DNA from: Minisyncoccia bacterium
GTDB taxonomy: Bacteria; Patescibacteriota; Minisyncoccia; SW-4-49-11
NCBI GenBank assembly: GCA_044341565.1
Contig: JBIIRM010000002.1
Span: 1,812-65,811 of the forward strand
DNA: 64,000 nucleotides
Direction of reading: 5' to 3'
Position 1 is the stretch's first letter, and each line of letters starts with the position of its first letter. Positions 6,026-59,201 of this stretch are shown piece by piece. The notes beneath the pieces are model-generated. The model did not search any database, was not told the origin of the DNA, and saw nothing but the letters and a program-made list of their open reading frames with translations. The position numbers and the translations under genes are program-made.

Positions 6026-6850
6026 ATGTCAGCTAAAATAGGAAAACTTCATATTGATACATTAAGTAAAAAAGAAGTTTTATCTCGAATTGAAAATGCA
6101 ATTGAGAAAAAAGATATATTGCAAATTGTAACTCCCTATTCAGAATTTGTAGTGGAGGCAGAATATAATACTAAATTTAGGGATGCAATTAATGCTAGTG
6201 AATTAAGGTTACCAGATGGAATTGGAATATTATGGGCAGGAGCTTATTTAGCTCATAAATGGAAGAGTTTATGGGGATCTTTATATGCTATTATGAATCA
6301 AGATAGTAAATTATATGCTATTTTTCCAGAAAAAATTAGTGGCTCAGACTTGATTTATGATATATTAGCTCTTGCAAGCAAAGCAGGATCAAGAATATAT
6401 TTATTGGGAGCAACAGAAGATGTATCGATAGCTGTACAGCAATATATTCATCAAGAATATCCTCGTATTACAATTGCTGGACGCAATACCAAAAAAGTTA
6501 AATTACAAGACAATGAATTATATCAAGAAATATTAGATAGTCATTCAGATATTGTATTAATAGCTTTGTCTTATCCTAAACAGGAAATTATTGGAAGTCA
6601 GCTAAAACAGTATTTTATTAAATATAAGCATAAAGGAATTATTGCCTGTATAGGAGGAAGTCTAGATTTTATTGCAGGTAGCCAGAGACGAGCTCCGAAA
6701 TGGATGCAAAAGCTAGGGTTGGAGTGGCTATTTCGTATAATTCAGCAGCCCAAAAGGATTAGACGAATTTATAAAGCTACCGTAGAATATATTCTTCTAA
6801 TCTCGAAGTATAAATCAAATATTGACAAAAACAAGGATAATGCTGTATAA
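6026..6850 (+). CDS. WecB/TagA/CpsF-family glycosyltransferase
   Basis: LPDGIGILWA, KQEIIG, GGSLDFIAGSQRRAPKWMQKLGLEWLFRIIQQPKR are the characteristic Glyco_tran_WecG motifs. Confidence 0.85.
   Translation: MSAKIGKLHIDTLSKKEVLSRIENAIEKKDILQIVTPYSEFVVEAEYNTKFRDAINASELRLPDGIGILWAGAYLAHKWKSLWGSLYAIMNQDSKLYAIFPEKISGSDLIYDILALASKAGSRIYLLGATEDVSIAVQQYIHQEYPRITIAGRNTKKVKLQDNELYQEILDSHSDIVLIALSYPKQEIIGSQLKQYFIKYKHKGIIACIGGSLDFIAGSQRRAPKWMQKLGLEWLFRIIQQPKRIRRIYKATVEYILLISKYKSNIDKNKDNAV
6786..6829. repeat. Direct repeat copy A (44 bp perfect; similarity continues about 25 nt further). Covers the 3' coding end of the WecG-like gene plus a -35 box.
   Basis: AATATATTCTTCTAATCTCGAAGTATAAATCAAATATTGACAAA is identical at 9054-9097. 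Confidence 0.95.
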
Positions 6851-6851
6851 T
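6822..6851 (+). promoter_or_regulatory. Sigma70-type promoter for the pilin-propeller gene
   Basis: TTGACA (6822-6827), 18-nt spacer, TG then TATAAT (6846-6851). The -10 box overlaps the stop codon of the upstream gene. Confidence 0.5.
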
Positions 6852-6863
6852 TAATAAACATAT

Positions 6864-9017
6864 ATGAAAATAAAAATAAAAAGAGTAAAGAAAGGATTCA
6901 CCTTACTCGAGATACTACTCGTAATAGTCGCAATAGGAATATTAGCAGCAATAGTATTAGTAGCAATCAACCCAAATAGACAAATAAGCCAAGTAAGGAA
7001 TGCGCAAAGGAGGTCGGATGTCAATACATTATATAAAGCACTGGAACAATATCTAATAGATAATCAAGTATATCCAGCAGATATAGATGGAACAACATCA
7101 AAAGAAGTTTGTAATACAGGAACAAGAAGTATAACAGATGATCTCCCCGATGAAAATTATTGTGATGGAAAAGCCGACTTAAGAGTCTTAGTCCCAGATT
7201 ATATAGCAGCCATACCAGTAGATCCAAGTGGGAATAACTATACAGTAAGGAAAAATGAAAGTAATAGCAATAATATTAAAATTTGTGTTAATGCCCCTGG
7301 GGTAGAATTAGGAAAAATTATAAAAATAAACTGTGAAGGCGAGGATGTAGCCTCAGGAGTACTTTTGCCATCAGATATATCGCCTTTTATAGAAGGTTTT
7401 GATGATTCTCTTGGAGAGTCGTTGTACGACGAACCTGGCACTAACGATGGAAGCTATGGATATGTATTTAATACCACTGAAGAGAGTATTGTAAACGCTT
7501 TAGGTTTTTCAGCACAAGACAACTGGACAAACACCAATCTAACATATACAGTTCAACTTTTGTCTTTTTCTGTTAACCCAGAAGATCCTGACATAGAGAC
7601 CTCCCTTACCTACCTATCTCTAGCAGAACTCACATTCAATCCCAATGATCCCGACTTACTTTTAGTTGATGGTTACTACTGGAAGCCTCTTCCAACTCCT
7701 ATTAATCTTGCAGCGTCCTCAAGCGATCCATATACCGGTTATAGCATAGTCGCTATTGGTAACTTTACTGATAATTTAGATCTAACACTACGTGGTAATT
7801 TTAAGGAAATTGATGGGCAACCGATCTTCTCTTCTTTGGGACTATATGAATTTGGTGGCTATAATCAAGTAGGTGCTCCATTTTATCCTTTGCCAATTCA
7901 AAGTAATGATCAATATGGATATTGGAATACTAATATATCAATTAAGTCACTTCAGGATCCTACCCCTGAAGGCTTTAATGGCCGAGTCGAAACTTTGGCT
8001 ATTCAATCAGATGGTAAAATATTTGTGGGGGGATGGTTTACTAACTATGAAGGGGTTGATTCAGTAAATAAAATAACCCGTCTTAATAGTGATGGAAGTA
8101 GAGATGATACCTTTATAGGCTCAGGATTTGATTCAGAATATAACGATGATTTGGAAGTTACTAGAGTTGACACTATTGCCATCCAAGCTAATGGCAAGAT
8201 AGTAGTGGGAGGCTCATTTACCAGCTACCAAGGAATAGCATCTAATAGAATAATCCGTCTTAATAGTGATGGAAGTATAGATACAAGTTTTAATGTAGAG
8301 ATAGAGTTTGATGATTGGGTGAGCGCTATTGCTATCCAGTCAGATGGAAAAATATTAGTAGGAGCAGATTATAATAAAATAATCCGTCTGAATAGTAATG
8401 GAAGTATAGACAGTAGCTTTAATATAGGAACAGGTTTTAATAATGCTGTAACTAATATTACTTTACAAAGTGATGGAAAAGTATTGGTAGGAGGAGTTTT
8501 TACTGGATATAATGGAGAATTAGCTAATAGAATAACCAGACTTAATTCAAATGGAAGTATAGACACAAGCTTTAATATGGGTACAGGCTTTGATAGTTGG
8601 GTTAACACCATCGCCATACAGGATGATGGAAAGATAATAGTGGGTGGAAATTTTTCTAGTTATCAGGGAGTAACAGCTAATAAAATAATCCGTCTGAATA
8701 GTAATGGAAGTATAGACAGTAGCTTTAATATAGGAACAGGTTTTAATAATGCTGTAACTAATATTACTTTACAAAGTGATGGAAAAGTATTGGTAGGAGG
8801 AGTTTTTACTGGATATAATGGAGAATTAGCTAATAGAATAACCAGACTTAATTCAAATGGAAGTAGAGATCTTAGCTTTGATATGGGATCAGGATTTAAT
8901 AATACGGTACAAACAATAACCGTTGATAGTGATGGAAAGATAATAGTAGGAGGTGATTTTACTAGTTATAAAGATCAAATTGCTAATTATTTTATTATAA
9001 TATATGAAGAATTGTAG
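6864..9017 (+). CDS. Type IV pilin-like protein fused to a roughly seven-blade beta-propeller (delta-60/DUF5122-like repeats); candidate pilus-displayed adhesin
   Basis: 717 aa. The N-terminus [27 protein letters not shown] is a prepilin cleavage/methylation motif (G|FTLLE). The C-terminal half carries seven (I/L)Q(S/A/D)DGK(I/V)(I/L)VGG and six (I/T)RLNS(D/N)GS(I/R)DxSF repeats. Confidence 0.8.
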   Translation: MKIKIKRVKKGFTLLEILLVIVAIGILAAIVLVAINPNRQISQVRNAQRRSDVNTLYKALEQYLIDNQVYPADIDGTTSKEVCNTGTRSITDDLPDENYCDGKADLRVLVPDYIAAIPVDPSGNNYTVRKNESNSNNIKICVNAPGVELGKIIKINCEGEDVASGVLLPSDISPFIEGFDDSLGESLYDEPGTNDGSYGYVFNTTEESIVNALGFSAQDNWTNTNLTYTVQLLSFSVNPEDPDIETSLTYLSLAELTFNPNDPDLLLVDGYYWKPLPTPINLAASSSDPYTGYSIVAIGNFTDNLDLTLRGNFKEIDGQPIFSSLGLYEFGGYNQVGAPFYPLPIQSNDQYGYWNTNISIKSLQDPTPEGFNGRVETLAIQSDGKIFVGGWFTNYEGVDSVNKITRLNSDGSRDDTFIGSGFDSEYNDDLEVTRVDTIAIQANGKIVVGGSFTSYQGIASNRIIRLNSDGSIDTSFNVEIEFDDWVSAIAIQSDGKILVGADYNKIIRLNSNGSIDSSFNIGTGFNNAVTNITLQSDGKVLVGGVFTGYNGELANRITRLNSNGSIDTSFNMGTGFDSWVNTIAIQDDGKIIVGGNFSSYQGVTANKIIRLNSNGSIDSSFNIGTGFNNAVTNITLQSDGKVLVGGVFTGYNGELANRITRLNSNGSRDLSFDMGSGFNNTVQTITVDSDGKIIVGGDFTSYKDQIANYFIIIYEEL
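8372..8559 (+). repeat. Intragenic perfect duplication, copy 1 (188 bp, offset 306 bp)
   Basis: Nucleotide-identical to 8678-8865. Encodes KIIRLNSNGSIDSSFNIGTGFNNAVTNITLQSDGKVLVGGVFTGYNGELANRITRLNSNGS. Confidence 0.9.
8678..8865 (+). repeat. Intragenic perfect duplication, copy 2
   Basis: Identical to 8372-8559 by direct comparison of the sequence lines. Confidence 0.9.
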
Positions 9018-9053
9018 TAGATATCAATCTACCAAAAGAGTTATATCACATTA

Positions 9054-9097
9054 AATATATTCTTCTAATCTCGAAGTATAAATCAAATATTGACAAA
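9054..9097. repeat. Direct repeat copy B (non-coding here)
   Basis: Identical 44-mer to 6786-6829. Followed by a related stretch: CATAAGTATAATAATGTATAATTAA here versus AACAAGGATAATGCTGTATAATTAA in copy A. Confidence 0.95.
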
Positions 9098-9119
9098 CAT
9101 AAGTATAATAATGTATAAT
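9090..9119 (+). promoter_or_regulatory. Sigma70-type promoter for rpmF (duplicate of the promoter at 6822)
   Basis: TTGACA (9090-9095), 18-nt spacer, TG then TATAAT (9114-9119). Confidence 0.5.
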
Positions 9120-9145
9120 TAACAGTAATTAAGTAATTATTTTGT

Positions 9146-9283
9146 ATGGCAGTACCAAAGAAGAGACATAATCATAGTAGAACCGGGAAAAACCGTTCTC
9201 ATCATGCTTTAAAACAAGTAGAAGCAAGAGTACGAGGAGTTTCTCATCGTTTGAAGAAATTTTTGACCCGAACTAATGGATAA
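9146..9283 (+). CDS. rpmF: 50S ribosomal protein L32
   Basis: Below the ORF-track size cut-off. Hand translation gives MAVPKKRHNHSRTGKNRSHHALKQVEARVRGVSHRLKKFLTRTNG*. MAVPKKR...R..HHAL is the L32 signature. Confidence 0.85.
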   Translation: MAVPKKRHNHSRTGKNRSHHALKQVEARVRGVSHRLKKFLTRTNG

Positions 9284-9321
9284 TGTTTAGTTTATAAATC
9301 GTCCTTAAATACCAAAAAAAT

Positions 9322-9756
9322 ATGGCAAATAGGCACTTTATGAGATCAGTAGCAATGCAAACACTGTATCAGATTGATGTTGCTGATTTATGGGAATATG
9401 AACAACTTTGGGATATTATTCAAGAGTCTTTATATCGTTTAGCTGAGGGAATAGAGGATATTTCTTATATTAAAGAGGTTATTTCAGGAGTATTAGAGCA
9501 TCGTACTCAAATTGATGCGGCTATTAGTAAATATGCTACTGGTTGGGTGGTAGAGACTATTGCTCCTGTTGAGCGAAATATTTTGCGTCTTGCAATTTAT
9601 GAAATTGACTACTATCAAGATAAAGATATTCCTCCTAAAGTTGCTATCAATGAAGCTATTGAACTAGCCAAAGCATTTAGTGGACCCGCAGCGGGGAAAT
9701 TTGTCAATGGAATATTAGGAGGATTATATAAGGATAAAGAGCCTATGAGTGTATGA
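9322..9756 (+). CDS. nusB: Transcription antitermination factor NusB
   Basis: 144 aa. R.AMQ.LYQ N-terminus, [22 protein letters not shown]. Confidence 0.85.
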
Positions 9757-10433
9757 GTAGATTAGCCATACTACAAGAGAAAATTGGATACCATTTTAAG
9801 AATATTGATTTATTAGAGCAAGCTTTAACACATAGATCTTATCTTAATGAAAACCCAGCATTTAAACTTGGCCATAATGAAAGGTTTGAGTTTTATGGGG
9901 ATGCAATATTAGAAGATATTGTTACAGCCTATTTGTTTCATCATTATACTGATAAAAATGAAGGGGAATTAACTAATTTAAGGGCAGCTCTTGTTAGGGG
10001 AGCTCATTTAGCTGAAATAGCTGAGCGCTTGGAATTAGACCAGTATTTAAATATATCTAATGGCGAGCGTAATGATCCAGGAGCAAAATCTTATATTAAT
10101 GCTAATGCAATTGAGGCTTTAATAGCAGCTATTCGACTAGATGGGGGATATGAAGTGGCCCAGAATTTTATTGATACCTTTATTATTCCAGATATCGAGA
10201 TAATTATTAAAGAAAAATTATTTATTGATGCTAAAAGTGTATTTCAAGAAAAAATTCAAGAACAAAAAGGTATTACTCCTCGATATGAAGTTATTACGGA
10301 GAAGGGTCCAGACCATAATAAAATATTTGAAGTGGCAGTATATGTAGAAAATATTGAATATGGAAAAGGTAAAGGTGCTTCTAAACAAAAAGCAGAGCAG
10401 GATGCTGCAAAAAATGCACTTGATAACATATAA
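9753..10433 (+). CDS. rnc: Ribonuclease III
   Basis: [13 protein letters not shown] catalytic motif, [17 protein letters not shown], and a C-terminal dsRBD ([14 protein letters not shown]...[18 protein letters not shown]). 4-nt overlap with nusB. Confidence 0.9.
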
Positions 10434-10436
10434 TAT

Positions 10437-10895
10437 ATGCATATAGGATATGATATTGATGGAGTTTTAACAAAGCGTGATTATACTCATGTATCTCGCT
10501 TTGGAATTAGGGGATTTATTGCCTTTTTTCAAGCATATTTCCCCCAAGTGATTAAACGTTGGACATTAAATCAGCCTTTACAAGATGATATAGAAATTGC
10601 CCAAAAAATTTCAAATGAACATACTATTTCTATTATTACGGCAAGACCAGCATCATTCCGCCGTTATACTGCACAATGGTTAAAAAATATTGCAAAAATA
10701 GAATATGATCATTTATATTGTGTAGGGCTTAAGAATGGGTTTTCTGAGCGTAAATTAAAAGTTGCTCAAGATTTGGAAATTGATGTTTTCCTGGATGATA
10801 CCAAAGAGACTATTGAATTATTTGAGGCCAATGGAATTAATGCTCATAAATTTGAAACATGGGCTGAGGTACAAGTCTATCTTAAAACATTATGA
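10437..10895 (+). CDS. HAD-superfamily hydrolase, putative (deoxy)nucleotidase-like
   Basis: N-terminal YDIDGVLT (HAD motif I), SIITARP, FLDDT. Confidence 0.5.
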   Translation: MHIGYDIDGVLTKRDYTHVSRFGIRGFIAFFQAYFPQVIKRWTLNQPLQDDIEIAQKISNEHTISIITARPASFRRYTAQWLKNIAKIEYDHLYCVGLKNGFSERKLKVAQDLEIDVFLDDTKETIELFEANGINAHKFETWAEVQVYLKTL

Positions 10896-11794
10896 CAATA
10901 TTACAAGGTTTTATATTAGGTTTAGTACAAGGTATTACTGAAGTACTCCCTGTATCGAGTACTGCTCATCTTATATTAACGCAAAAATTATTGGGGCTTG
11001 ATAGTATTGGAATTTCATTTGATGTTATGATGAATTTTGGAAGTTTGATTGCAATTATTATTTATTTTAGGGATATATGGCTTGATTTAATTGTGGGAGT
11101 ACTCAATTTTATCAAAATCCGTGTCAGTGTTTGGCTGAGAGCAAGACCTCACATAAAACAATATACCCCAAGATTCAAATCGATGGAAACTCAGTATTCA
11201 TTGGAGACATCATTTTATACACAATCTTTACAATCAGCTAGAACAGCAGTATTTTTAGCCCTAGCTACTCTTCCGGCTCTTTCAATTGGATATATATTAA
11301 AAGATTGGATTGAAAGCTATGCCAGAACCCCATTTGTTATAGCTATTGCTTTGATTATGGGTGCTATTCTTCTTGAAATTGCTGACAGAATAGGAAAAAG
11401 AGAATTAACATTGCATACTATTACTCCAATGAGAGTTTTGATTATTGGATGTACTCAAGTATTATCTCTTATCCCTGGATTTTCCCGTACGGGTTCCACT
11501 ATGACGGGGGGATTATTTGTAGGGCTTAATCGTAAAGATAGTGCAGCCTTTGCTTTTTTATTAGGGGCTCCTGTTATTCTGATTGCAACAATTGCTACAT
11601 TGCCAGATTTTATTGCTGAATATAGTTATTCTGCTGCAAGTGTAATTGCATTTATTACCTCAGGAATTGTTACTTATATTACTATTCATATTTTGTATAC
11701 CATTATACAAAAGCAATCCTTTCGTATTTTTGTTGTGTATCGTATTATTCTTGGTATACTATTATTAGTAGCTATATATAAATCAATATTATGA
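10892..11794 (+). CDS. uppP: Undecaprenyl-diphosphate phosphatase
   Basis: ILGLVQGITEVLPVSSTAHLIL, PGFSRTGSTMTGGL, polytopic membrane protein. Confidence 0.9.
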   Translation: MTILQGFILGLVQGITEVLPVSSTAHLILTQKLLGLDSIGISFDVMMNFGSLIAIIIYFRDIWLDLIVGVLNFIKIRVSVWLRARPHIKQYTPRFKSMETQYSLETSFYTQSLQSARTAVFLALATLPALSIGYILKDWIESYARTPFVIAIALIMGAILLEIADRIGKRELTLHTITPMRVLIIGCTQVLSLIPGFSRTGSTMTGGLFVGLNRKDSAAFAFLLGAPVILIATIATLPDFIAEYSYSAASVIAFITSGIVTYITIHILYTIIQKQSFRIFVVYRIILGILLLVAIYKSIL

Positions 11795-12537
11795 AAACAA
11801 TTGTCTGTAATTGGAAAATGAATCCAAGCTCCATTGAAGAGGTAAATGAAATTGTTGATATTATTGCGGGGAATACTACTTCGGTAGGAAGAGCCGAGCT
11901 TATTATATTGCCTCCAAGTATTTATATATCTACCTTACAGCAATATCAATCTCGTTTATTTGCATCTCTGGGGGTACAGGATATTTCCTCTCAAGCCTCT
12001 GGAGCTTATACAGGACAGCTTTCAGCAGAAATGGTATATAATCTGGGACTCGAATATGCTCTTATTGGGCATTCTGAGACAAGAATATATCAACATTATA
12101 CTACTCAGGATATAGCAGATAAACTTACTCAGGTTCTTACACATAATCTTATTCCTATTCTTTGTGTGGGGTATGAAGAAAATCCTAATTTAGAGGAAGT
12201 AAATACAGATACAATAAAACAAGAATTATATGACATTATTGAACCCAATAAAGAATTATTAGCGGGGAAACATATTATTATTGCTTATGAGCCAATTTGG
12301 GCTATCGGTACTGGAAAAACGCCAAGTCTTGAGAGTATTGAGACTGTGAGTATTTTTATTAAGCGTATGGTTTTGGATATTTTAACTCCAGAGTCTCAAA
12401 ATACAGTGGCGGTATTATATGGAGGTAGTGTGAATAAAGACAATATACAGGAATTATCATCGATTCCTTCAGTGTCAGGTTTTTTGATAGGGGGAGCTTC
12501 TCTTGATAAGGAGCAAATCCCTATTTTATTAGGATAA
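11791..12537 (+). CDS. tpiA: Triosephosphate isomerase
   Basis: CNWKMN, IGHSETR, AYEPIWAIGTGKT, YGGSV. Confidence 0.9.
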   Translation: MKTIVCNWKMNPSSIEEVNEIVDIIAGNTTSVGRAELIILPPSIYISTLQQYQSRLFASLGVQDISSQASGAYTGQLSAEMVYNLGLEYALIGHSETRIYQHYTTQDIADKLTQVLTHNLIPILCVGYEENPNLEEVNTDTIKQELYDIIEPNKELLAGKHIIIAYEPIWAIGTGKTPSLESIETVSIFIKRMVLDILTPESQNTVAVLYGGSVNKDNIQELSSIPSVSGFLIGGASLDKEQIPILLG

Positions 12538-12594
12538 CAGATTGAGTGTTCCGTAATACTATGTTATGCTAACAGTATAGTTAATATAAGAAGT

Positions 12595-17845: not shown

Positions 17846-17963
17846 TATGTTAGAATTACTAATATAAATATAGTATATACTAGTTGCAAATGATTTGCAA
17901 CTAGTTGAATTGGACTCTGATGAAGTATATGATAGAATAAGTATAAGATTCAATATAATATAT

Positions 17964-18356
17964 ATGATTAATAAAAATAAAAAAGGATTTACCTTATTAG
18001 AAATAATACTCACAATTACTGCAATTGGGATATTATCGGCAATAGCTTTGGTGGCATTAAACCCGAATAAACAATTAGAGGCGGGAAAAGCGGTTAAAAG
18101 AAAAGCAGATATGGATGCTATTGCAAAGGCAATAGAGCAATATGTTGTCAATAATCGGGGACAATATCCACCAGCCCTACAATCTGTAGTGACAGGAGGA
18201 ACGGTAGGATTATGTGCTACAAATCCTTGTACAGGAGGTATAGATTTGACTACAGATCTAGACCCCTATATAGCAGCTATACCATTACCTGATATAGGTC
18301 AATATACTATTACTAAAACAGCCGCAGGTATTATATTGGAATATTCGTCTTTCTGA
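17964..18356 (+). CDS. Type IV pilin-like protein (prepilin N-terminal methylation domain)
   Basis: Start reassigned to the ATG at 17964: MINKNKKGFTLLEIILTITAIGILSAIALVALNPNKQ. The N-terminal 70 aa are clearly related to the N-terminus of the 6864 gene. Confidence 0.8.
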   Translation: MINKNKKGFTLLEIILTITAIGILSAIALVALNPNKQLEAGKAVKRKADMDAIAKAIEQYVVNNRGQYPPALQSVVTGGTVGLCATNPCTGGIDLTTDLDPYIAAIPLPDIGQYTITKTAAGIILEYSSF

Positions 18357-22891: not shown

Positions 22892-24658
22892 ATGCAATCA
22901 AAACGACCGTACAATAATAATTTACAGAATAAGAATAACCGTTCTCGATCTCAAGGAAAAAGTTTTGCTCAAAAAAGAACTATTCCTGAAACCTCACGCC
23001 AAGCTCTCAAGATAATTCCTTTGGGAGGCCTTGATGGTGTTGGCAAGAATATGTATATATTTGAACAAGAGAATGATATTCTGATTGTCGATATGGGGCT
23101 TCAAATGCCCGGTGCTAATCAACCAGGAATTGATTATATTATCCCCAATACACAATATTTGATGGATAATAGCTCCAAAATAAAGGGAGTAGTATTAACT
23201 TCACCACATCCCGATCATATTGGGGCTGTTCCATATCTTTTACATTTATTCCCTAATTTGCATATTTATGCAACCGAGGCTTTATTTGCAATATTGGAGT
23301 CTAGGCAAGATTTTTATTCTCAAGGGGTAAAATACAAAAAACATATTATTAAACCCTATAATTCTATACGAGTAGGATCCTTTAAAGTGAATGTTTTCCC
23401 AACTCCATTTAATGTTATGGGTTCAATAGGATTATGTGTGTATACTATGCAAGGAAAGGTATTTTATCTCTCTAGCTATAAATTGGATAGTGAATCTACA
23501 GAAAAAAATGAATTTCTCGATTATATAAAGGAATTAGCTGGAGCTGATACATTTGCTCTTTTATCAGGTAGTTCAGCTACAGAATCACAGGGATTTGCAC
23601 CGACAGAAGCATCTATTGCAGAACATATTGATTCGGTTATAGCTCGCAAGACAGGTGCTGTATTTGTGTCTACATTCCCCTCTATGATTGGGCGCATGCA
23701 ACAAATTGTCAATGCAATAGAAGCTCATAACAAGCATTTATTCATTGAAGGAAAAAGTTTACTTAATACTTTTAATACATGTCGCAAAAAGGGGCTTATT
23801 CAAATAAAATCAGGTACTATAGTAGGGCCTAGTTTACTCGGGGATACTCCAAGAGAGCAATTAGTAGTATTAATATCTGGTTCTCATGGAGATGATATTC
23901 CTCATTTGATGAGACTGGCTAATAATGAGCATAGTGTATTCTCAATTAAAGAAGGGGATATTGTTATGTATCCTGGGGCTTTAATTCCTGGAAATGCCCG
24001 TTCAGCAGCTCGAGTAAATGATAATTTTGCTAAATTAGGAGCTTTTGTAGAATATTATCAGCCATTAGATACACGATTTGGGGCTTATGGAAGACATGAA
24101 GATAGTCTAGCTGTATTAAAAGCAATTCGTCCTAAATATTATGTACCTATTAGTGGATCACATCATTTGTTGAGGTCTAATGGAGATATTGCCATTGAAG
24201 GTGGGTATCCAGATCGCAATGTTGTAGTTGGTATGAATGGAAAAGTTATTCTATTTGATTATAAACAAAGACGTATTACTCCGGAAAAAGTTCCTACTTC
24301 CAATGTAATTGTAGATGGGCTTGGAGTTGGTGATTTAACCAATGTAGTTATACATGATAGGCAAACAATGTCAGAAGAGGGTATATTCCATATTGTAGCC
24401 CTACTGAATGCAGATACTCGAGAAATATCAGGAGATATTGTGGTAGTATCAAAAGGATTTGTAGATAATGAATCTTCAGATAAATTATTTAATGAAGTAA
24501 AAGAACAAACAAGATTAATTGTATTAGCTCTTTTGAAACAATCTGATGAAGTAAATATTGCCTATATACAAGATCAAGTAAGAGAGAATATTGGTCGCTT
24601 ATTACTTACGAAAACGGAAAGAAGACCAATGATTTTACCAATAATAATGAATATTTAA
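22892..24658 (+). CDS. Ribonuclease J paralog with degenerate metal-binding motif and basic N-terminal extension
   Basis: 588 aa beta-CASP/metallo-beta-lactamase architecture collinear with the next gene. Motif 2 reads SPHPDH rather than HxHxDH. Confidence 0.8.
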   Translation: MQSKRPYNNNLQNKNNRSRSQGKSFAQKRTIPETSRQALKIIPLGGLDGVGKNMYIFEQENDILIVDMGLQMPGANQPGIDYIIPNTQYLMDNSSKIKGVVLTSPHPDHIGAVPYLLHLFPNLHIYATEALFAILESRQDFYSQGVKYKKHIIKPYNSIRVGSFKVNVFPTPFNVMGSIGLCVYTMQGKVFYLSSYKLDSESTEKNEFLDYIKELAGADTFALLSGSSATESQGFAPTEASIAEHIDSVIARKTGAVFVSTFPSMIGRMQQIVNAIEAHNKHLFIEGKSLLNTFNTCRKKGLIQIKSGTIVGPSLLGDTPREQLVVLISGSHGDDIPHLMRLANNEHSVFSIKEGDIVMYPGALIPGNARSAARVNDNFAKLGAFVEYYQPLDTRFGAYGRHEDSLAVLKAIRPKYYVPISGSHHLLRSNGDIAIEGGYPDRNVVVGMNGKVILFDYKQRRITPEKVPTSNVIVDGLGVGDLTNVVIHDRQTMSEEGIFHIVALLNADTREISGDIVVVSKGFVDNESSDKLFNEVKEQTRLIVLALLKQSDEVNIAYIQDQVRENIGRLLLTKTERRPMILPIIMNI

Positions 24659-24659
24659 T

Positions 24660-26435
24660 ATGAAATCGTATCAACACTCTGAAATTAAGAGAGGAACAAC
24701 TTTTGTGACAGATTTAAGTCATAAAAGTAATGACTATCTTAATGCAAAAGAACCATTTAAGACTAAAGATAATCTTTTGAAAATTATTCCACTGGGTGGA
24801 TCAGAAGAAATTGGAGGTCGTAATATGACGGTAATAGAATATGGAAAAGATATTCTCGTCATTGATATTGGGATGAAATTCCCAGAAGAAGATCAACCAG
24901 GAGTTGATTATATTATCCCCAATCCCAGTTATCTTAAGGGGAAAGAGGATAATATTCGAGCTGTACTAATTACGCATGGACATATGGATCATATTGGAGG
25001 AGTATCTCAGGTTATGTCTATGATTGGTAATCCTCCTATATATGCACCTGCCCTACCTCTTGCTATGATGCAAAGACGACAAAGTGAATTCACTACCGTG
25101 CCTCCATTAAATGGAAAAGTAGCTAAATTAAATGAAAAGCTTAAATTTGGAGTATTTACTGTAACCTTTCTTCATATTAATCACAGTATTCCAGATTCAA
25201 CTATGATTAAGATTGAAACTCCAGAAGGAGTTATTCTGCATACGGGAGATTTCAAAATAGATGCTACTCCTATTGGAGAAGAGCCAGCTAATTTGGAAAT
25301 GTATCGCAAAATTGGTGATGAGGGAGTATTGGTATTATTATCTGATAGTACTAGTGCTTCTCGTCCCGGAAGAGTAACTTCTGAGATGACAATTCAAAAT
25401 AATATTGATCATATTTTTGAGAATGCTACCGGTAAAATTATTGTTACTACATTTTCTAGTACACTCAATCGTATACAACAAATGATTCATTTATCTGAAA
25501 AATATAATCGTAAAGTTGTAATTGAAGGATTTAGTATGAAAACGAATGTTCAAATTCTCCATGAAATTGGATATGCACATTTTTCTCCTCAAACTGTTAT
25601 TAGTGCACAAGAGGCTCGTAATATTCCTCCAGAAAACCTTACTATTATTTGTACAGGAGCTCAGGGAGATGAACGCTCAGCCCTAACCCGTATGGCTAAT
25701 CGTGAGCATCGGAATTTCCATATTGAAAAGGGAGATACCGTAGTATTCTCATCTTCTGTAGTTCCAGGTAATGAGGAGTCAGTACAAAAGGTGAAAGATG
25801 CTATTGCTCGCCAAAGAGCTCATATTATTCATTATAAAATGATGGAAGTTCATGTTTCCGGACATGCACAAAGAGATGATTTAAAACAATTATTAGATTT
25901 AATTCGTCCTAAATATTTACAGCCAATTTATGGAGATTTTTATTCTCTCAAATCTCATCGTGATTTAGCTCTAGAAGTTGGTATGAAAAAAGATAATATC
26001 TTACTTACTGATAATGGAAGAATTATAGAAATATATAAGGGTGAAGCCCGTGTAACTACTGAGAAAGTTAATGCTAGCACTATGATGGTGGATGGACTCG
26101 GAGTAGGGGATTTAAAAGAAATTGTAATCCGAGATAGACAATCTTTGGCTCAAGATGGTATTGTAACGGTAGTAGCTTTAGTTGATTTCAAAAAGGGAAA
26201 GCTTATTCGTGAACCAGAAATTATTTCTAAGGGATTTGTACATATACAAACATCTACCAAATTAATACAATCTATACAAGCTCGAGTACAAGAGCATATT
26301 GAGAAGAAATTGTCTCATGGAGAAGATCAAAGTATTGAATATATTCAACAATCAATTCGTGAAGATTTAGGTCTATTCTTATTCAGAACTACCCATAGAA
26401 GACCAATGATTATACCGGTTATTATTGAAATATAA
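24660..26435 (+). CDS. rnj: Ribonuclease J
   Basis: 591 aa. LKIIPLGGSEEIGGRNM, canonical THGHMDHIGG, beta-CASP and C-terminal domains. Confidence 0.9.
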   Translation: MKSYQHSEIKRGTTFVTDLSHKSNDYLNAKEPFKTKDNLLKIIPLGGSEEIGGRNMTVIEYGKDILVIDIGMKFPEEDQPGVDYIIPNPSYLKGKEDNIRAVLITHGHMDHIGGVSQVMSMIGNPPIYAPALPLAMMQRRQSEFTTVPPLNGKVAKLNEKLKFGVFTVTFLHINHSIPDSTMIKIETPEGVILHTGDFKIDATPIGEEPANLEMYRKIGDEGVLVLLSDSTSASRPGRVTSEMTIQNNIDHIFENATGKIIVTTFSSTLNRIQQMIHLSEKYNRKVVIEGFSMKTNVQILHEIGYAHFSPQTVISAQEARNIPPENLTIICTGAQGDERSALTRMANREHRNFHIEKGDTVVFSSSVVPGNEESVQKVKDAIARQRAHIIHYKMMEVHVSGHAQRDDLKQLLDLIRPKYLQPIYGDFYSLKSHRDLALEVGMKKDNILLTDNGRIIEIYKGEARVTTEKVNASTMMVDGLGVGDLKEIVIRDRQSLAQDGIVTVVALVDFKKGKLIREPEIISKGFVHIQTSTKLIQSIQARVQEHIEKKLSHGEDQSIEYIQQSIREDLGLFLFRTTHRRPMIIPVIIEI

Positions 26436-44300: not shown

Positions 44301-44696
44301 ATGAAAAAGCTCTTTCTCCCTTTTGTAACAGCAATTTCAGTTCTATTCCCAATGGCAGCAACAGCTCAATGGTGGGGTGAATCTTTTGAAAGTATTGAAT
44401 ATAATGGGGTGATAATTCGCTCCGATATTCGTCCACGCACTATTATTTGTCCTATTGTGGAATCACAAGGATTACCTTGTGATGGATATCAAGGATTCAA
44501 TGCATCCACCAGGACTCATATTTTTAGAAATAATGGGAATTGGAATAATAATAGAAACTGGAATAATCAGTGGCAAAACCCAGGATGGAATAATAATCAA
44601 CATTGGAGACAGCCTAATTCAGGATGGAATAATAATGGAGGTTGCCTCTTCAAAAAATGGACGCGAGATGGTGGCTTTGCAATCGGGAATTGCTGA
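44301..44696 (+). CDS. Secreted Asn/Trp-rich small protein (island unit 1, host-like AT-rich composition)
   Basis: Signal peptide MKKLFLPFVTAISVLFPMAATAQ. NWNNNRNWNNQWQNPGWNNNQHWRQPNSGWNNNGG low-complexity block, encoded by a recurring TGGAATAATAAT unit. Cys residues flank the block. Confidence 0.7.
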   Translation: MKKLFLPFVTAISVLFPMAATAQWWGESFESIEYNGVIIRSDIRPRTIICPIVESQGLPCDGYQGFNASTRTHIFRNNGNWNNNRNWNNQWQNPGWNNNQHWRQPNSGWNNNGGCLFKKWTRDGGFAIGNC

Positions 44697-44787: not shown

Positions 44788-44812
44788 CACTAAGTCGTTT
44801 CGTGGATAAACC

Positions 44813-45124
44813 ATGAAAACTCTTACCAAGTTCATCGCCGGCGCTCTGCTGGCAGGCACCACACTTCTGACCGTGGCTCCCGCCACGGCTCAGTCCCTCA
44901 GCGGCAGGGTCGCCGTCGGACCCATCGGGTCCACCACGAGGGCCTGGACCTCGGTCTCCGAAGCTCAGTCCCTGTGTGCCCGCAATGGGTGCTGGGTGAC
45001 CGATGGGGTGGAGGTGTCACCCGGTAATTGGGTACCGAACACTCTGTTCCCGGGGGCGAAATCCCTCAGGGATTCAGCTGGGAACGGCCTGCTCGAGATT
45101 CCTCGAGCGACATCTCCTCGCTGA
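44813..45124 (+). CDS. High-GC secreted small protein, unknown function (island unit 2)
   Basis: 103 aa. Signal peptide MKTLTKFIAGALLAGTTLLTVAPATAQ. GC-rich third codon positions (gcc ggc gct ctg ctg gca ggc acc). Line 44881-44940 counts 44/60 G+C. Confidence 0.7.
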   Translation: MKTLTKFIAGALLAGTTLLTVAPATAQSLSGRVAVGPIGSTTRAWTSVSEAQSLCARNGCWVTDGVEVSPGNWVPNTLFPGAKSLRDSAGNGLLEIPRATSPR

Positions 45125-45150
45125 GGTGTCAGTTCAGTTTAGTTCAATAA

Positions 45151-45176
45151 GCCTCTGCAATGCAGGGGCCTTTTTT
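45151..45176 (+). terminator. Intrinsic terminator of island unit 2
   Basis: GCCTCTGC-aat-GCAGGGGC (one G.U pair), followed by CTTTTTT. Confidence 0.7.
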
Positions 45177-45199
45177 ATATATTGAAATGTTGTCAATAC

Positions 45200-45228
45200 T
45201 TGACTTTTTGGTTTAAATATGCTATTAT
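45200..45228 (+). promoter_or_regulatory. Extended -10 promoter of island unit 3
   Basis: TTGACT (45200-45205), 17-nt spacer ending in ATGC, TATTAT (45223-45228). Confidence 0.6.
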
Positions 45229-45255
45229 AGATCCGTCTTTCATGGGTTTATCCTA

Positions 45256-46254
45256 ATGAAAAAGTTCATTCCCATCTTGCTTGGCTCTGTTTTACTGGCT
45301 TCGGCTGGAAAGGCGGAGACATTGCCTTTGAGGCTCCAGATCAGCACCCCAGATTCCAATCGGGCGGTGAGGGTGATCATAAGTCCCAGTCAAGCGAAAG
45401 CCTCGGCAGGGCTGGTAACAGCTCGTCCTGGTTCCAATCCCTCGGACTGGGCACCTCAGTACAATAGACTGATTAACCAAAAGGCCCTCGGGTCTCGCGG
45501 TCAATCGGGTGCTGGGCTCACAGCAGGTACGCCTCGGCGTTTCTGTCTGGTGCCTTTGTACCAGGAGGTGAAAAATCTCTCTGCGCTCCCTTGTGGAGCT
45601 TATGGGGAGAGTATCAACTTCCGGTCCAATGGACCCCTTGCCTTCAGCCTTATCAGTGTCAAATCTGATGGTGGATGGCAATGGCTCGACAATGGGCCTA
45701 AGGGGGCTGGTACTGGTGGTCTTACTCTTGTAAGTTCACCAGGCTGGGAAGTTGCTGGGTGGGGACATACCTCAAAAGGGTATGTCCCCACCAGCAGGGG
45801 AGTATTCTTTGGCCCCATCTTCACGGGTGGGGACTTGGCTACCTCGAGGATTTTATCCTCGACTCCCGCCTCGGCGGTGAGGGAGCCTATCTGGCGTCTG
45901 CCAGATTCTGGGCTCAGGTTCCCGGCAGTGATCACGGTCAGCAATGATCGTATCACTCTCTCCACCACCCCCATTCCCGGGGCGCAATATTTCTTCCTCC
46001 CTCGGGAGGGCGGTATGTCGGTAGGACGCGAATTCATCGCAATTCAGCCAGGAGTAGCATTCCAAGCTGGAGTTCAGCTGAACTCCTCCGCTACCGATGC
46101 TGGCACCTTTGGTGCCAAGCTTCCCGATGGCAAGATTGCCTGGATTCAATGGGGATCTCGTCCTGATGGACGTGACACCCGGGTCAAGGTGATTAATCAA
46201 GGTGGTCAGCCCTGGGTTCAGCAAGGTTGGAGCTTGGTCCGCGTTCATCGCTGA
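45256..46254 (+). CDS. High-GC secreted protein, unknown function (island unit 3)
   Basis: 332 aa. Signal peptide MKKFIPILLGSVLLASAGKAE. G/P/S/W-rich mature part. Promoter, terminator and signal peptide all support the + strand over the open antisense frames. Confidence 0.75.
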   Translation: MKKFIPILLGSVLLASAGKAETLPLRLQISTPDSNRAVRVIISPSQAKASAGLVTARPGSNPSDWAPQYNRLINQKALGSRGQSGAGLTAGTPRRFCLVPLYQEVKNLSALPCGAYGESINFRSNGPLAFSLISVKSDGGWQWLDNGPKGAGTGGLTLVSSPGWEVAGWGHTSKGYVPTSRGVFFGPIFTGGDLATSRILSSTPASAVREPIWRLPDSGLRFPAVITVSNDRITLSTTPIPGAQYFFLPREGGMSVGREFIAIQPGVAFQAGVQLNSSATDAGTFGAKLPDGKIAWIQWGSRPDGRDTRVKVINQGGQPWVQQGWSLVRVHR

Positions 46255-46271
46255 TCAGACTCCTCATATCA

Positions 46272-46298
46272 GCCCTCACAATTTGTGGGGGCTTTTTT
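46272..46298 (+). terminator. Intrinsic terminator of island unit 3
   Basis: GCCCTCACA-att-TGTGGGGGC (one G.U pair), followed by TTTTTT. Confidence 0.7.
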
Positions 46299-46337
46299 AT
46301 TTCTCTCCAAAAACACTATAATAGATGTTGTTAGCTA

Positions 46338-46366
46338 TTGACAAAATCGTGTTTTTATGCTAGTAT
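46338..46366 (+). promoter_or_regulatory. Extended -10 promoter of island unit 4
   Basis: TTGACA (46338-46343), 17-nt spacer ending in ATGC, TAGTAT (46361-46366). The TTG of the -35 box is what the ORF track used as a start codon. Confidence 0.6.
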
Positions 46367-46394
46367 GCGAGAGTTCTTTACCAGGAGTTTTACG

Positions 46395-47528
46395 ATGAAA
46401 AATCGTAACATCTTGGGGATGTTTGCAATCGTTCTTCCACTACTTGCCCCTATGGGTGTCAAGGCGGAGAATTTGCTCTCATCACCTCAATCGAATATCC
46501 AGGCAGAAATGCCTCGGAGACTCTCAACTCGAGAGCAAGCAGCTGAGCTTCGCGCCATGCGTGAAGCTGCCGAGGCTCGTAATGCTGGAAGTGTTCCGCA
46601 AATGTCACAGACTCCACCTGGACCACCACCGGTTTTGCCGGTAACTCAGGTTGTGACACAACAACCTGTCAATCCTGTGGTTGCAGGACCTGTTGTTACC
46701 CCTTTTCAAAAGGGCGGTGGAGAATCCTCCCTGTTCGGTGGTAATAACACCAATATCAGGGGGGAGGCAGAGTACAGTAGCACTCCCAGCCAGATCAATT
46801 CCAAGGCTGGAGTCACGCTGGCTCCCAAGGGGAAACCTTTCCTGATGCAAGTTACCGGCTATCAAAGCTCGGGAACTTGCCCAGCAGGTCCGGGAGGTAC
46901 TTGTTCCTATGATTCCAGTAAGCTGGATATCTATGGGGCTCTGAGAGGCTGGTCTTCCACTACCGAGTGGAATGCTGGTCCCTTTGTCCGTTTCCAGCAG
47001 AATAATGCTAATGGGACTTGGAAAAGCCCCGATGGTCTTTATTCCGGTGAATGGAAGTCGGATAAGCCTCAGACTGATGTCGGTATCCGAGCCCGGATTC
47101 GTCATCGCCTGGACCCCAAGTCTTCCGCCAATCCTTGGATTGGTGCAGGTGGCGAATACGATTTCGCCAATGGAGGCTATGACGCCTTCGGCGAAGGCGG
47201 TATTCGCCCCGGCAACTCCAAGAATCCCTGGAATCTGTATGTCCAGGGGGGTGTGAATACTGACGGAGGATATTTTTATCCCGAGGTCACCACACCTAAT
47301 CTGGTGGGGGATGCCAATTCGAAGCTGCAGGTCCAGCTTCAGGCAAAGGGAGTTCTTTATGGCCTCGGCCGTGATAACTCCACTAGTCGAGTTGAACTCG
47401 GGGCCCCCATCACCCTGAATCTCAGCCGCAATACGGCTATTCAGGTGGTGCCAGCCTATGTGCTGGGACTCGACTCCAATACCCGCTCAGGGTTTGGGGG
47501 CACAGTAAAGCTCCGCTTCGGCTTCTGA
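46395..47528 (+). CDS. Moderately high-GC secreted protein with outer-membrane beta-barrel hallmarks (island unit 4)
   Basis: Start reassigned to the ATG at 46395, with GGAG 8 nt upstream. Signal peptide MKNRNILGMFAIVLPLLAPMGVKAE, a Pro-rich stretch, then a G/N/Y/W-rich region with alternating-hydrophobic strands. The protein ends in GGTVKLRFGF* (terminal Phe, hydrophobic at -3, -5, -7). Confidence 0.75.
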   Translation: MKNRNILGMFAIVLPLLAPMGVKAENLLSSPQSNIQAEMPRRLSTREQAAELRAMREAAEARNAGSVPQMSQTPPGPPPVLPVTQVVTQQPVNPVVAGPVVTPFQKGGGESSLFGGNNTNIRGEAEYSSTPSQINSKAGVTLAPKGKPFLMQVTGYQSSGTCPAGPGGTCSYDSSKLDIYGALRGWSSTTEWNAGPFVRFQQNNANGTWKSPDGLYSGEWKSDKPQTDVGIRARIRHRLDPKSSANPWIGAGGEYDFANGGYDAFGEGGIRPGNSKNPWNLYVQGGVNTDGGYFYPEVTTPNLVGDANSKLQVQLQAKGVLYGLGRDNSTSRVELGAPITLNLSRNTAIQVVPAYVLGLDSNTRSGFGGTVKLRFGF

Positions 47529-47606
47529 AGTAAAACCAAAAATGATAGCAACTAACCCCTCACGGGGAGCAGTCGCCTTGACCATCTCTGGTTTTATACC
47601 CCTATA

Positions 47607-55103: not shown

Positions 55104-56174
55104 ATGTTAGGATTAGGAGTAAAAAATTCGTTTGGTATTGATATTGGTACACAAACTATTAAAATTTCGGAAGTTCAAAAACAAGGAGGGAAAATATCCG
55201 TGATTAATTATAGTATTTGGGATGATGATTTAGATAATATTATTCAAGAGAAAAACGGGGAACATATTATTTCTGTATCTCAGATTACCACCATTATACA
55301 AGCTATGCTTAATGCTGCTAAAATGGAAATAAAGGAGGCATATATTGCAATCCCTTCATATTTAGCTTTTTCAGCAGTTGTTCAATTTCCTCTTATGTCA
55401 TTTGAAGAATTGTCTACAGCTGTACCACTTGAAGCAAAACAATATATTCCTGTTCCTTTAACCAGCGTGCAATTAGATTGGATGAATTTAGGGCCTAATA
55501 AGGAAAAAGATAAATTAAATGTATTAGTAATTGCCATTCCTAATAGTGTGGTAAATACGTATATTGAAGTAAGTAAAGCCCTAGGTATTACGATTAAGGG
55601 ATTTGAATTAGATGCTTTCTCTATTATTCGTTCTATTGATTTGCCCAATAGTCAAGTATGTGTTGTAGATATTGGGGCAAGAACCAGTACGGTAAGTATT
55701 GTTAATACAGAAGATCAATTGCAATTAATACAATCATTTGATTTTGGAGGGAATCATATTACGGATAAAATTTCATCTTCTCATAATATATCCAGTATAG
55801 AAGCAGAAAAACTCAAAAAAGATAATGGAATATCTGGTCCTAAGTCAGAAATATCAGCCTTAATACAATCTGGGATTAAGAGCTTTTTTGAAAATGAAGT
55901 ATTGCGTATTATTCACCAATTCCAAGATAATAATGAAGAAAAAATACAAGATATTGTATTGCTTGGTGGCTTTGCTAAAATGGACGGTATTCGAGAATTT
56001 GTTGATTTAGTTATTAATAATCAATTAGGAGTAAGTCAAAAAATTACTATTACTGTTGCAGAACCCTATTCTAATCTGAGCATTAAAGGGGTGAAGGATA
56101 AGGAAGTTCTGCATGCAATTTGGCATGATTTGGTATTGTCAATTGGTATTTCACTTAAAGATTATGTCGAATAA
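55104..56174 (+). CDS. pilM: Type IV pilus assembly ATPase-like protein PilM
   Basis: FGIDIGTQTIKISEV actin-like fold; 356 aa; first gene of the pilus cluster. Confidence 0.8.
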   Translation: MLGLGVKNSFGIDIGTQTIKISEVQKQGGKISVINYSIWDDDLDNIIQEKNGEHIISVSQITTIIQAMLNAAKMEIKEAYIAIPSYLAFSAVVQFPLMSFEELSTAVPLEAKQYIPVPLTSVQLDWMNLGPNKEKDKLNVLVIAIPNSVVNTYIEVSKALGITIKGFELDAFSIIRSIDLPNSQVCVVDIGARTSTVSIVNTEDQLQLIQSFDFGGNHITDKISSSHNISSIEAEKLKKDNGISGPKSEISALIQSGIKSFFENEVLRIIHQFQDNNEEKIQDIVLLGGFAKMDGIREFVDLVINNQLGVSQKITITVAEPYSNLSIKGVKDKEVLHAIWHDLVLSIGISLKDYVE

Positions 56175-56175
56175 T

Positions 56176-56706
56176 ATGGAAAATATTAGCTTTATTCCTA
56201 ATAGACAAAAAGGCTCAGAGGGATATGTGACTATTAAAGAGGAGCATCCTTATCGGGGGTATATTATTGGATTTATATTGACATTAATTATATACATAGG
56301 AGTATTGGGTTCTGTTTATTGGGTTTATATTATAAAGCCTACGAATGAATATAATCAAATTTTAGCAGATTTAAATGAAAGAAATAGTGTATATTATCCA
56401 AAAGATGATTTAGAAAAAACAGTGTATAATGTGAATACATTGATTTCTCAAACATATGATCCAGTTGAAATTATGAAAGAAATTGAAGCAACATATACTA
56501 CTGGGTTTAAAACAAGTTCTTGGGTATATAGTGCACAAAAAAAGACTATTATTCTTTCAGCACAAGCGCTTTCTTTTGATGATGCTAATTCTCAAATATC
56601 TAAGATAAAGGAGGTTAAAGGTGTTATAGATGCTTCTTCCCCAGATATTAGGAAGAATTCTGAGGGTAGTGGAGTTAGTCTTGATATATTGATTAAGTTA
56701 AAGTAG
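56176..56706 (+). CDS. PilN-like pilus assembly membrane protein
   Basis: Single TM (YIIGFILTLIIYIGVLGSVYWVYII) plus a periplasmic-type domain, immediately after pilM. An alternative ATG at 56164 cannot be excluded. Confidence 0.5.
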   Translation: MENISFIPNRQKGSEGYVTIKEEHPYRGYIIGFILTLIIYIGVLGSVYWVYIIKPTNEYNQILADLNERNSVYYPKDDLEKTVYNVNTLISQTYDPVEIMKEIEATYTTGFKTSSWVYSAQKKTIILSAQALSFDDANSQISKIKEVKGVIDASSPDIRKNSEGSGVSLDILIKLK

Positions 56707-56711
56707 ATGAT

Positions 56712-57242
56712 ATGAATCAAAAAACCCTTTTATCCATTTCATTCTGTATTATATTTATTACTTTGATTTGGACAATAACTAATTTTTATACTGATTTTTT
56801 GACAAGTAAATTCTCTGGAGTAAAGGAATTACAGAAAAAAACACAAATTACCCAATCATTTGCTGATCAAAAGTCGCCCTCAGAATTGGCAAAAAGAATA
56901 AATGAATTCACACCAGATTCACTGGATAAGACCGCGATTACAACAGAATTTACACAATTTGCAAGAGAATCTAATATTGAAATAGCTTCCATCTCTGTAG
57001 ATGAGCAGGGTTCACTAATAAAAGATACTAATAACTTAGATACCAATAATACTTCTATTAATACATTAAGACCAGTGAATATTTTATTAAAAATAACTGG
57101 AGGTAGAAGAGAAATATATACTTTTTTACAAAAATTAATACAATCAAAGCGATATATAGGGGTGAATACCGTTAGCTTATCTTTTGCTAAAGGATTAGGT
57201 AATATAGAGGGAGCTATTAATGCAATAACATATTATAAATAA
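56712..57242 (+). CDS. PilO-like pilus assembly membrane protein
   Basis: Single N-terminal TM plus a roughly 140-aa domain. Assigned by position in the pilM-N-O order only. Confidence 0.4.
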   Translation: MNQKTLLSISFCIIFITLIWTITNFYTDFLTSKFSGVKELQKKTQITQSFADQKSPSELAKRINEFTPDSLDKTAITTEFTQFARESNIEIASISVDEQGSLIKDTNNLDTNNTSINTLRPVNILLKITGGRREIYTFLQKLIQSKRYIGVNTVSLSFAKGLGNIEGAINAITYYK

Positions 57243-57244
57243 AT

Positions 57245-57427: not shown

Positions 57428-57428
57428 T

Positions 57429-59144: not shown

Positions 59145-59201
59145 GCAAAATAATAAAGATATGATATTATTAATACAAAATAAGAGTAAATAAACATATA
59201 T

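Follow-up and report, generated by a model that had tools for sequence, protein, structure and literature searches.

A tri-modular type IV pilin as a candidate pilus-displayed adhesin in a Minisyncoccia bacterium

Introduction

What does a protein of 717 residues do behind the short leader of a type IV pilin? The question is raised by a gene at positions 6864 to 9017 of a 64,000-nucleotide (nt) stretch of DNA from a Minisyncoccia bacterium (Patescibacteriota; GenBank assembly GCA_044341565.1, contig JBIIRM010000002.1, positions 1,812 to 65,811 of the forward strand), referred to here as the window. An initial annotation, made from the letters alone, described the product as a pilin N-terminus fused to a seven-blade beta-propeller and proposed it as a pilus-borne adhesin. 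Structure prediction of the full protein, hidden Markov model (HMM) searches and the context of prepilin cleavage were named as checks, and a model lacking either a pilin fold or a propeller was named as grounds for rejection.

To our knowledge, every Patescibacterium in cultivation lives attached to another microbe. The molecules with which they select their hosts are mostly unknown, and modular pilins are the leading candidates. Our analysis points to a type IV pilin of three modules that is most likely displayed on the pilus as a tip-located minor-pilin adhesin, a reading to which we assign a probability of about 0.6. A protein of identical sequence (P0122) is present in NCBI/JGI, where JGI has automatically named it [quoted passage not shown].

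Modular architecture of the protein

The reading frame is organized as follows.

6864–9017, plus strand: coding sequence of the tri-modular pilin, 717 amino acids (aa), ATG start, stop codon included
6864–6896, plus strand: class III (prepilin) leader MKIKIKRVKKG, cut predicted after Gly11; read from the sequence, with N_methyl and TIGR02532 above cutoff
6897–7367, plus strand: pilin module, residues 12–168, a hydrophobic alpha-1 helix and a GspG-like globular head with four Cys
7368–7946, plus strand: middle module, residues 169–361 (193 residues), a beta-sandwich of an unnamed family otherwise found as stand-alone secreted proteins of ~250 aa
7968–9014, plus strand: seven-blade DUF5122/delta-60 beta-propeller, residues ~369–717, recognized by HMM repeats, AlphaFold2 (AF2) and Foldseek

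The N-terminus, MKIKIKRVKKG followed by FTLLEILLVIVAIGILAAI, comprises a short basic leader, Gly at position −1, Phe at +1, Glu at +5 and then a hydrophobic helix, so that the cleavage site reads as a class III signal between MKIKIKRVKKG and FTLLE. On the 717-aa protein, Pfam N_methyl (PF07963) scored 24.2 bits against a cutoff of 21.2 and NCBIfam TIGR02532 scored 26.7 bits against 16.3, in agreement with the canonical prepilin motif first described for this gene. A gene for the prepilin peptidase PilD also lies within the window.

The best-scoring named model for the pilin module, the GspG model TIGR01710, covers residues 10–139 (E=4e-14) with 52.8 bits, below the equivalog cutoff of 88.85, and the module is therefore GspG-like but not filed as GspG. 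A profile built from the module and its relatives matched solved structures of geopilin (8e-15), GspG 5wda of the type II secretion system (T2SS; 7e-11) and several type IV major pilins, with matches spanning the helix and a portion of the head. AF2 modelled the full-length protein with a helix at residues 14–67 followed by three to four beta-strands, giving the pilin "lollipop" with a predicted local distance difference test (pLDDT) score of 45–69; this score is low because few homologues could be aligned.

A pattern scan revealed four prepilin-type open reading frames (ORFs) in the window. One of them encodes a paralogue of the pilin module.

17964–18356, plus strand: small paralogous pilin, 130 aa, 44% identical to the pilin module of the large protein

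The initial annotation had related the first 70 residues or so of the large protein to this small pilin. The relationship proved stronger, with the 44% identity spanning the whole ~130 aa and including the C-terminal YIAAIP...YT strand. The mechanical ORF call for the small pilin (17895–18356) begins at a TTG at 17895; the real start is most likely the ATG at 17964 (MINKNKKGFTLLE), as indicated by the prepilin motif and the homologues.

At the other end of the protein, seven DUF5122 (PF17164) repeats were detected by Pfam with 280 bits against a cutoff of 27, and seven delta_60_rpt (TIGR02608) repeats by NCBIfam with 183.5 bits against 76.5. All the HMM searches that had been suggested were thus above their curated cutoffs. 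AF2 modelled residues 370–717 as seven repeated blade units at a pLDDT of ~85–97. When the propeller model was submitted to Foldseek, all the matches were propellers, and the target-normalised template-modelling (TM) score was best for seven-bladed WD40 folds (0.75 for G-beta and 0.73 for beta'-COP, compared with 0.63–0.65 for designed eight-bladed proteins). The enzyme CylK and the sugar-sensing BT4663 were also among the matches. Closure of the propeller was judged here from the blade units and from Foldseek.

Two blades contain an exact intragenic repeat of 188 nt.

8372–8559, plus strand: copy 1 of the 188-nt repeat, in blade 4
8678–8865, plus strand: copy 2 of the 188-nt repeat, in blade 6

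The sequence downstream of each copy has diverged. Two near-identical public proteins, P0121 (615 aa) and P0002 (621 aa), correspond to the same protein minus exactly 102 aa, or two blades, and lack exactly one 306-nt period between the 188-nt copies. Recombination or assembly collapse across the repeat would yield precisely these shorter forms, and for this reason we rejected the five-blade variants as evidence of a polymorphism in blade number. The short forms do not decide which form is authentic. It is probably the seven-blade one, because blades 5 and 7 are distinct and the seven-blade model is confident.

Taken together, the HMMs, the profile matches and the AF2 model uphold the fusion of a seven-blade propeller to a type IV pilin N-terminus with its pilin module, and both the pilin fold and the propeller whose absence was to count against the proposal are present in the model. 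The layout given earlier stands in its two outer parts and needs correction between them: a domain at residues 169–361 had been overlooked, and the propeller begins only near residue 370.

Origin of the middle module

No match to the middle module was found in Pfam or NCBIfam. The full-length AF2 model was run without homologues of this domain, which resulted in low confidence over the region; when the module was modelled alone with a 44-sequence alignment, an all-beta fold was obtained with a pLDDT of 91.3 and a predicted TM score (pTM) of 0.89. A fold search in BFVD returned weak matches only, to phage virion and tail proteins. The predicted fold class, a sandwich of the surface-exposed, binding type, does not point to a specific function.

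A word-level search of 5.8 billion proteins with the middle domain alone yielded five homologues. Four are stand-alone proteins of 250–255 aa with 51–55% identity, and the fifth, a 133-aa fragment with 61% identity, is encoded in the complete genome of Cyanobium sp. M30B3. The stand-alone relatives carry an N-terminal signal peptide and a C-terminal tail (VPGPLPLLGAGSAF.WSRRLK.KIK), and the domain in the window aligns exactly with their mature ectodomain, from after the signal peptide to before the tail. A profile search of 1.84 billion cluster representatives gave 47 matches, nearly all of them stand-alone proteins of 230–290 aa; the sole pilin-linked member was the cluster of the window protein itself. 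Scans of genome contigs with the middle-domain alignment, and of metagenome contigs with residues 1–368, returned chance pattern matches only.

A neighbour-joining tree placed the domain as sister to the P0123–P0126 clade, nested inside the stand-alone family. The contigs of its closest relatives have a G+C (GC) content of 54–65%, compared with 34% for the window. GC at third codon positions (GC3) is 0.27 in the middle segment, 0.21 in the pilin part and 0.17 in the propeller part, a composition that weakly supports a foreign origin of the middle segment. The sequences are most economically explained if the pilin gene took up a stand-alone gene of this family from a donor of high GC, possibly a picocyanobacterium: the relatives are nearly all stand-alone, the window domain nests in their tree and the contigs of the closest ones are richer in GC.

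By eye, the tails of the relatives (VPGPLP, a hydrophobic stretch and RRLKRK) resemble exosortase-type (PEP-CTERM-like) sorting signals. We rejected this identity, as TIGR02595, TIGR04155 and PF07589 gave no match on P0123–P0126 and the best score among distant members (cyano_PEP, 10.8 bits) was below the threshold of 21.6.

Type IV pilus machinery in the window

The window contains a main pilus cluster at 55104–63764, ~48 kb downstream of the tri-modular pilin gene, as expected from the earlier statement that this gene lies outside the cluster.

55104–61894, plus strand: type IV pilus machinery, comprising PilM, two small ORFs, the PilB ATPase, a response-regulator-like ORF, the PilT ATPase and the platform protein PilC
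61938–62354, plus strand: 138-aa pilin within the cluster, candidate major pilin
62446–63276, plus strand: prepilin peptidase PilD (A24_N_bact and Peptidase_A24), the enzyme expected to process the leader
63279–63764, plus strand: 161-aa prepilin-type protein, a further (minor) pilin

HMM searches identified PilM by PF11104, PilB by T2SSE and MshEN, PilT by T2SSE and PilC by two T2SSF domains. The two small ORFs after PilM, in the position of PilN/O, had no HMM match. The response-regulator-like ORF (59202–59582), between the PilB and PilT genes, appears from its sequence to consist of a single domain. Both a prepilin peptidase and an assembly machinery (PilB, PilT, PilC and PilM) are therefore found at 55–63 kb, and no T2SS-specific components were seen in the window.

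Proposed function and alternative explanations

In the proposed mechanism, PilD (62446–63276) would cleave the leader after Gly11, and the PilB/PilC/PilM machinery would insert the alpha-1 helix into the filament core as for an ordinary pilin. The pilin module would then act as a carrier whose C-terminus holds a cargo of ~550 residues, the 169–361 sandwich and the ~369–717 propeller, outside the filament. Because this cargo appears too bulky for every packing position, the protein would most likely be a minor pilin of low abundance, placed at the pilus tip or close to it. The cargo would bind a ligand on a partner cell or surface and thereby form the adhesin or host-recognition end of the pilus. 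As for the pilus-borne adhesin proposed at the outset, the pilin–propeller fusion is well founded, and the adhesin role, argued by analogy, agrees with the precedents of Streptococcus sanguinis PilB/PilC and TM7x PilX2.

Several points weigh against this function. Cleavage, pilus incorporation, tip location and ligand binding are all inferred from the sequence, and the globular head of the pilin was modelled at modest confidence only (pLDDT 45–69). DUF5122 has no known ligand or function, so that the word adhesin is used here by analogy. At a distance of 48 kb from the pilus cluster, the gene adjoins that of a WecG-type glycosyltransferase, a position that would also fit a cell-envelope role unrelated to pili. 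The PilX2 propeller of TM7x is of the RCC1 type, not DUF5122, and PilX2 has no predicted PilD site, which is canonical here; this precedent, compared by description, is analogous and not homologous. For the middle domain, only one relative, that of Cyanobium, is assigned to an organism, and the Cyanobium copy (L009 5929–6753, CP073761.1) has an in-frame TAA at a conserved Tyr codon (GTD*WKP). The same TAA is present in an independent read assembly (L010), and the copy may be a pseudogene in strain M30B3.

Pseudopilins of the T2SS and archaeal surface proteins with class III signal peptides work as export and anchor devices. The prepilin N-terminus could likewise serve only to export or anchor the sandwich and propeller, in which case the product would be a membrane-anchored surface protein or a pseudopilus stub. 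We regard this as possible, though rather unlikely. The closest named HMM is indeed that of a T2SS pseudopilin, GspG, whose structure 5wda was also matched, but the score (52.8 versus 88.85 bits) is below the equivalog cutoff, T2SS-specific components are lacking among the genes seen in the window, and PilT and PilM, typical of type IVa pili (T4aP), are present. For a subunit of a filament, ~550 aa is a very large cargo, yet published modular pilins with bulky cargo occur in pili (PMC8179133). The gene lies outside the pilus cluster and follows the gene for a WecG-type cell-envelope glycosyltransferase in two divergent lineages, which would suit a surface anchor; the pilin module, on the other hand, shares 44% identity with an ordinary small pilin encoded elsewhere in the window.

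The display of the modules on the pilus or cell surface could also be correct and their job a non-adhesive one: a lectin-like scavenger of nutrients or polysaccharides, an enzyme, or a structural primer that nucleates pilus assembly in a minor-pilin tip complex. DUF5122 is abundant in Bacteroidota proteins secreted by the type IX secretion system (T9SS), where it has no demonstrated adhesin role, and the Foldseek matches to CylK and BT4663 would be in agreement with a catalytic or sugar-sensing propeller. No catalytic family was matched by Pfam or NCBIfam, however, and the cargo of sister pilins includes classic binding domains, for example ConA-like lectin and fn3. With the TM7x precedent tying a propeller pilin to host binding (PMC12206443), we find a non-adhesive role unlikely.

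A narrower proposal concerns the partner. The middle sandwich could be an ectodomain from a picocyanobacterial (Cyanobium-like) surface protein, used to recognize the envelope of a cyanobacterial host or prey, and could bind whatever partner the native cyanobacterial protein binds there. This is doubtful on present evidence. If true, the middle domain would be a sequence-level pointer to the host identity of an uncultivated lineage of the Candidate Phyla Radiation (CPR), and the protein would illustrate how the capture of domains by modular pilins can determine host range.

Age of the gene at its locus

The gene had also been described as recently inserted, with a flanking duplication as the sign of this event. 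The duplication exists in the form of a 69-nt direct repeat whose copies are 93% identical and which is common to a near-identical strain (L001).

6786–6854, plus strand: copy 1 of the 69-nt repeat, overlapping the 3' end of the WecG-like gene; perfect promoter TTGACA-18-TATAAT at 6822–6851
9054–9122, plus strand: copy 2 of the 69-nt repeat, with a perfect promoter at 9090–9119; upstream of an L32-like ORF, followed by nusB-like and RNase III-like ORFs

Only two sites in this region match the sigma-70 consensus perfectly (12/12), and they lie exactly within the two copies. The repeat is best explained by duplication of a promoter, with one copy for each transcription unit (pilin and rpmF-nusB).

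About 20 codons at the end of the WecG-like gene belong to the duplicated segment. The first promoter ends only 13 nt 5' of the pilin ATG and no Shine-Dalgarno sequence is obvious, so that the 5' untranslated region of the pilin transcript may be very short or the transcript leaderless. The ORF at 9148–9285 (MAVPKKRHNHSRTGKNR...) resembles ribosomal protein L32 by eye; it is below the length threshold of the ORF list and is 100% conserved in L001.

Comparison with a divergent lineage bears on the age of the gene. P0019 (953 aa, 14 blades) is a full-length homologue with 42% identity to the tri-modular pilin. In four metagenome contigs and one metagenome-assembled genome (MAG), its gene comes last in a series of POR-alpha/gamma, POR-beta, WecG and pilin-propeller, which is also the order in the window. 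The flanking proteins of the two lineages are only 45% (WecG) and 59% (POR-beta) identical. Because the same gene order is kept despite such low flank identities, the pilin gene is, as judged from these sequences, an old resident of the locus whose adjacency to its neighbours predates a deep divergence.

A recent foreign insertion of the whole gene, marked by target duplication, is thus very improbable: the repeat brackets the gene and the P0019 lineage has other genes than the window downstream of the pilin, but the shared upstream order largely refutes this origin, the repeat is a complete promoter and not an insertion scar, the pilin and propeller segments are native-like in GC and GC3, the pilin module has a paralogue in the window, and only the middle module looks laterally acquired.

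Modular pilins across Patescibacteria

To place the protein among its relatives, we consider first the distribution of its carrier. A scan with the globular part of the pilin module, covering one genome per bacterial or archaeal species, gave 34 confirmed loci, all in MAGs of Patescibacteria/CPR (labelled Parcubacteria, Paceibacteria, Minisyncoccia, Peribacteria, Falkowbacteria and Uhrbacteria, with some Saccharibacteria), at best identities of 60–62%. About half of the pilin ORFs at these loci are 300–950 aa long. Their C-terminal modules include Laminin_G_3 (twice), fn3, Gly_rich_2, Fib_succ_major, DUF5122 and several that were not recognized.

DUF5122 occurs among the 34 loci with 14 blades at L023, at least 6 at L034 and at least 1 at L028, and further pilin–DUF5122 fusions were found in P0019, P0057 and P0096. 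On a CPR-like contig (L008), tandem pilin–DUF5122 paralogues (7247–9907, 886 aa, and 10001–12571, 856 aa) adjoin the infA-rpsM-rpsK-rpsD-rpoA operon. The closest pilin modules (60–62%) have no DUF5122 blades in the available sequence, with two of the three cut by contig ends. The sequences at hand therefore indicate that pilin carrier and cargo have probably recombined repeatedly. One conserved CPR pilin carrier would have its cargo easily exchanged between lectin, fn3, glycine-rich, Fib_succ_major and DUF5122 propeller modules.

The protein belongs to an already described class, the modular pilins, as it combines an IPR012902-type domain (N_methyl) with non-pilus domains, here seven DUF5122 repeats and an unnamed beta-sandwich. 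Its delta-60 part may have been catalogued as well, if IPR013431 is the delta-60 repeat. A survey reported over 1,200 modular pilins with 264 architectures, many from CPR phyla, and its Dataset S1 lists the architecture IPR012902-IPR013431-IPR013431 (PMC8179133). New here are the tri-modular layout, the evidence for capture of the middle module, and the age of the gene at its locus together with its duplicated promoter.

The locus offers a concrete case of a cargo domain apparently captured from a stand-alone secreted family, whose sole organism-assigned member is cyanobacterial. If captured domains mirror the partner organism, they could help to predict the hosts of uncultivated CPR bacteria from sequence alone; if this domain does not mirror a partner, the gene is an ordinary, automatically annotated member of a described class.

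Other features of the window

A high-GC island at 44800–47600 (GC 0.51–0.53, compared with 0.33 for the window) contains three ORFs with signal-peptide-like N-termini.

44813–45124: island ORF, no Pfam or NCBIfam match
45256–46254: island ORF, no Pfam or NCBIfam match
46338–47528: island ORF, no Pfam or NCBIfam match

Only 29 homologues were found, all unnamed. The island is conserved, syntenic and still high in GC in relatives with copies 88% and 60% identical, which rules out a misassembly; in these relatives it is located between a Wzz-Wzy-glycosyltransferase cluster and GT4-DUF4012. We considered the island as a second cyanobacterial signal and set this aside, as it speaks neither for nor against a cyanobacterial link. 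Just upstream, the ORF at 44301–44696 (131 aa) begins much like a signal peptide and ends in a low-complexity tail rich in Asn and Trp (NWNNNRNWNNQWQNPGWNNNQHW...), with no family match.

Elsewhere in the window, two adjacent paralogues of ~590 aa (22892–24658 and 24660–26435) resemble, by eye, ribonucleases of the RNase J-type metallo-beta-lactamase/beta-CASP group.

Comparison with known systems

Among named families, GspG shares with the pilin module the best-scoring model and the profile match to 5wda. The two differ in that the score is below the equivalog cutoff and that the window, with no T2SS genes found, holds a T4aP-like machinery with PilT and PilM.

The propeller half belongs to the same repeat family as the DUF5122/delta-60 proteins, with 40–61% identity over this half and thousands of homologues. 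These homologues are mostly from Bacteroidota, have 14 blades or more and end in a T9SS sorting domain. The tri-modular pilin instead has seven blades, a pilin carrier in place of T9SS sorting, and a distinct C-terminal closure motif common to the other CPR pilin fusions.

PilY1/PilC of Pseudomonas and Neisseria is a seven-bladed propeller adhesin at the pilus tip with variable modules attached. PilY1 is no pilin itself but docks onto a minor-pilin complex, whereas the protein described here has its propeller covalently joined to a pilin. No PilY1/Neisseria_PilC domain was among the Pfam matches at E<=1.

In S. sanguinis, PilB carries a vWA module and PilC a ConA-like lectin module (Raynaud et al. 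2021, PMC8179133). Adhesin activity has been proven for PilB, a bimodular pilin that was placed at the pilus tip by structural modelling (PMC8179133). The tri-modular pilin resembles these proteins in its class III signal and in a small pilin carrier with bulky C-terminal cargo attached through a short linker, and all would be expected to be low-abundance, tip-exposed, ligand-binding subunits. It differs in that the cargo comprises two modules, an unnamed beta-sandwich and a DUF5122 propeller rather than vWA or lectin, in its origin from a Patescibacterium, and in being known from sequence alone.

PilX2 of TM7x (Nanosynbacter lyticus, Saccharibacteria) is a minor pilin whose seven-bladed propeller is of the RCC1 type; deletion of PilX2 reduced host binding from 10.6% to 4.6% (PMC12206443). 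It has been proposed as the adhesin of the T4P-2 pilus, and PilX1 of the same organism bears a beta-jelly-roll domain (PMC12206443). PilX2 is encoded in a pilin locus, whereas the tri-modular pilin gene is solitary. Both PilX2 and the tri-modular protein are, the latter by prediction, Patescibacterial minor pilins with a C-terminal seven-bladed beta-propeller. With PilX1 and PilX2, both types of cargo fold thus have precedents, and in the Minisyncoccia protein the two are found on one polypeptide.

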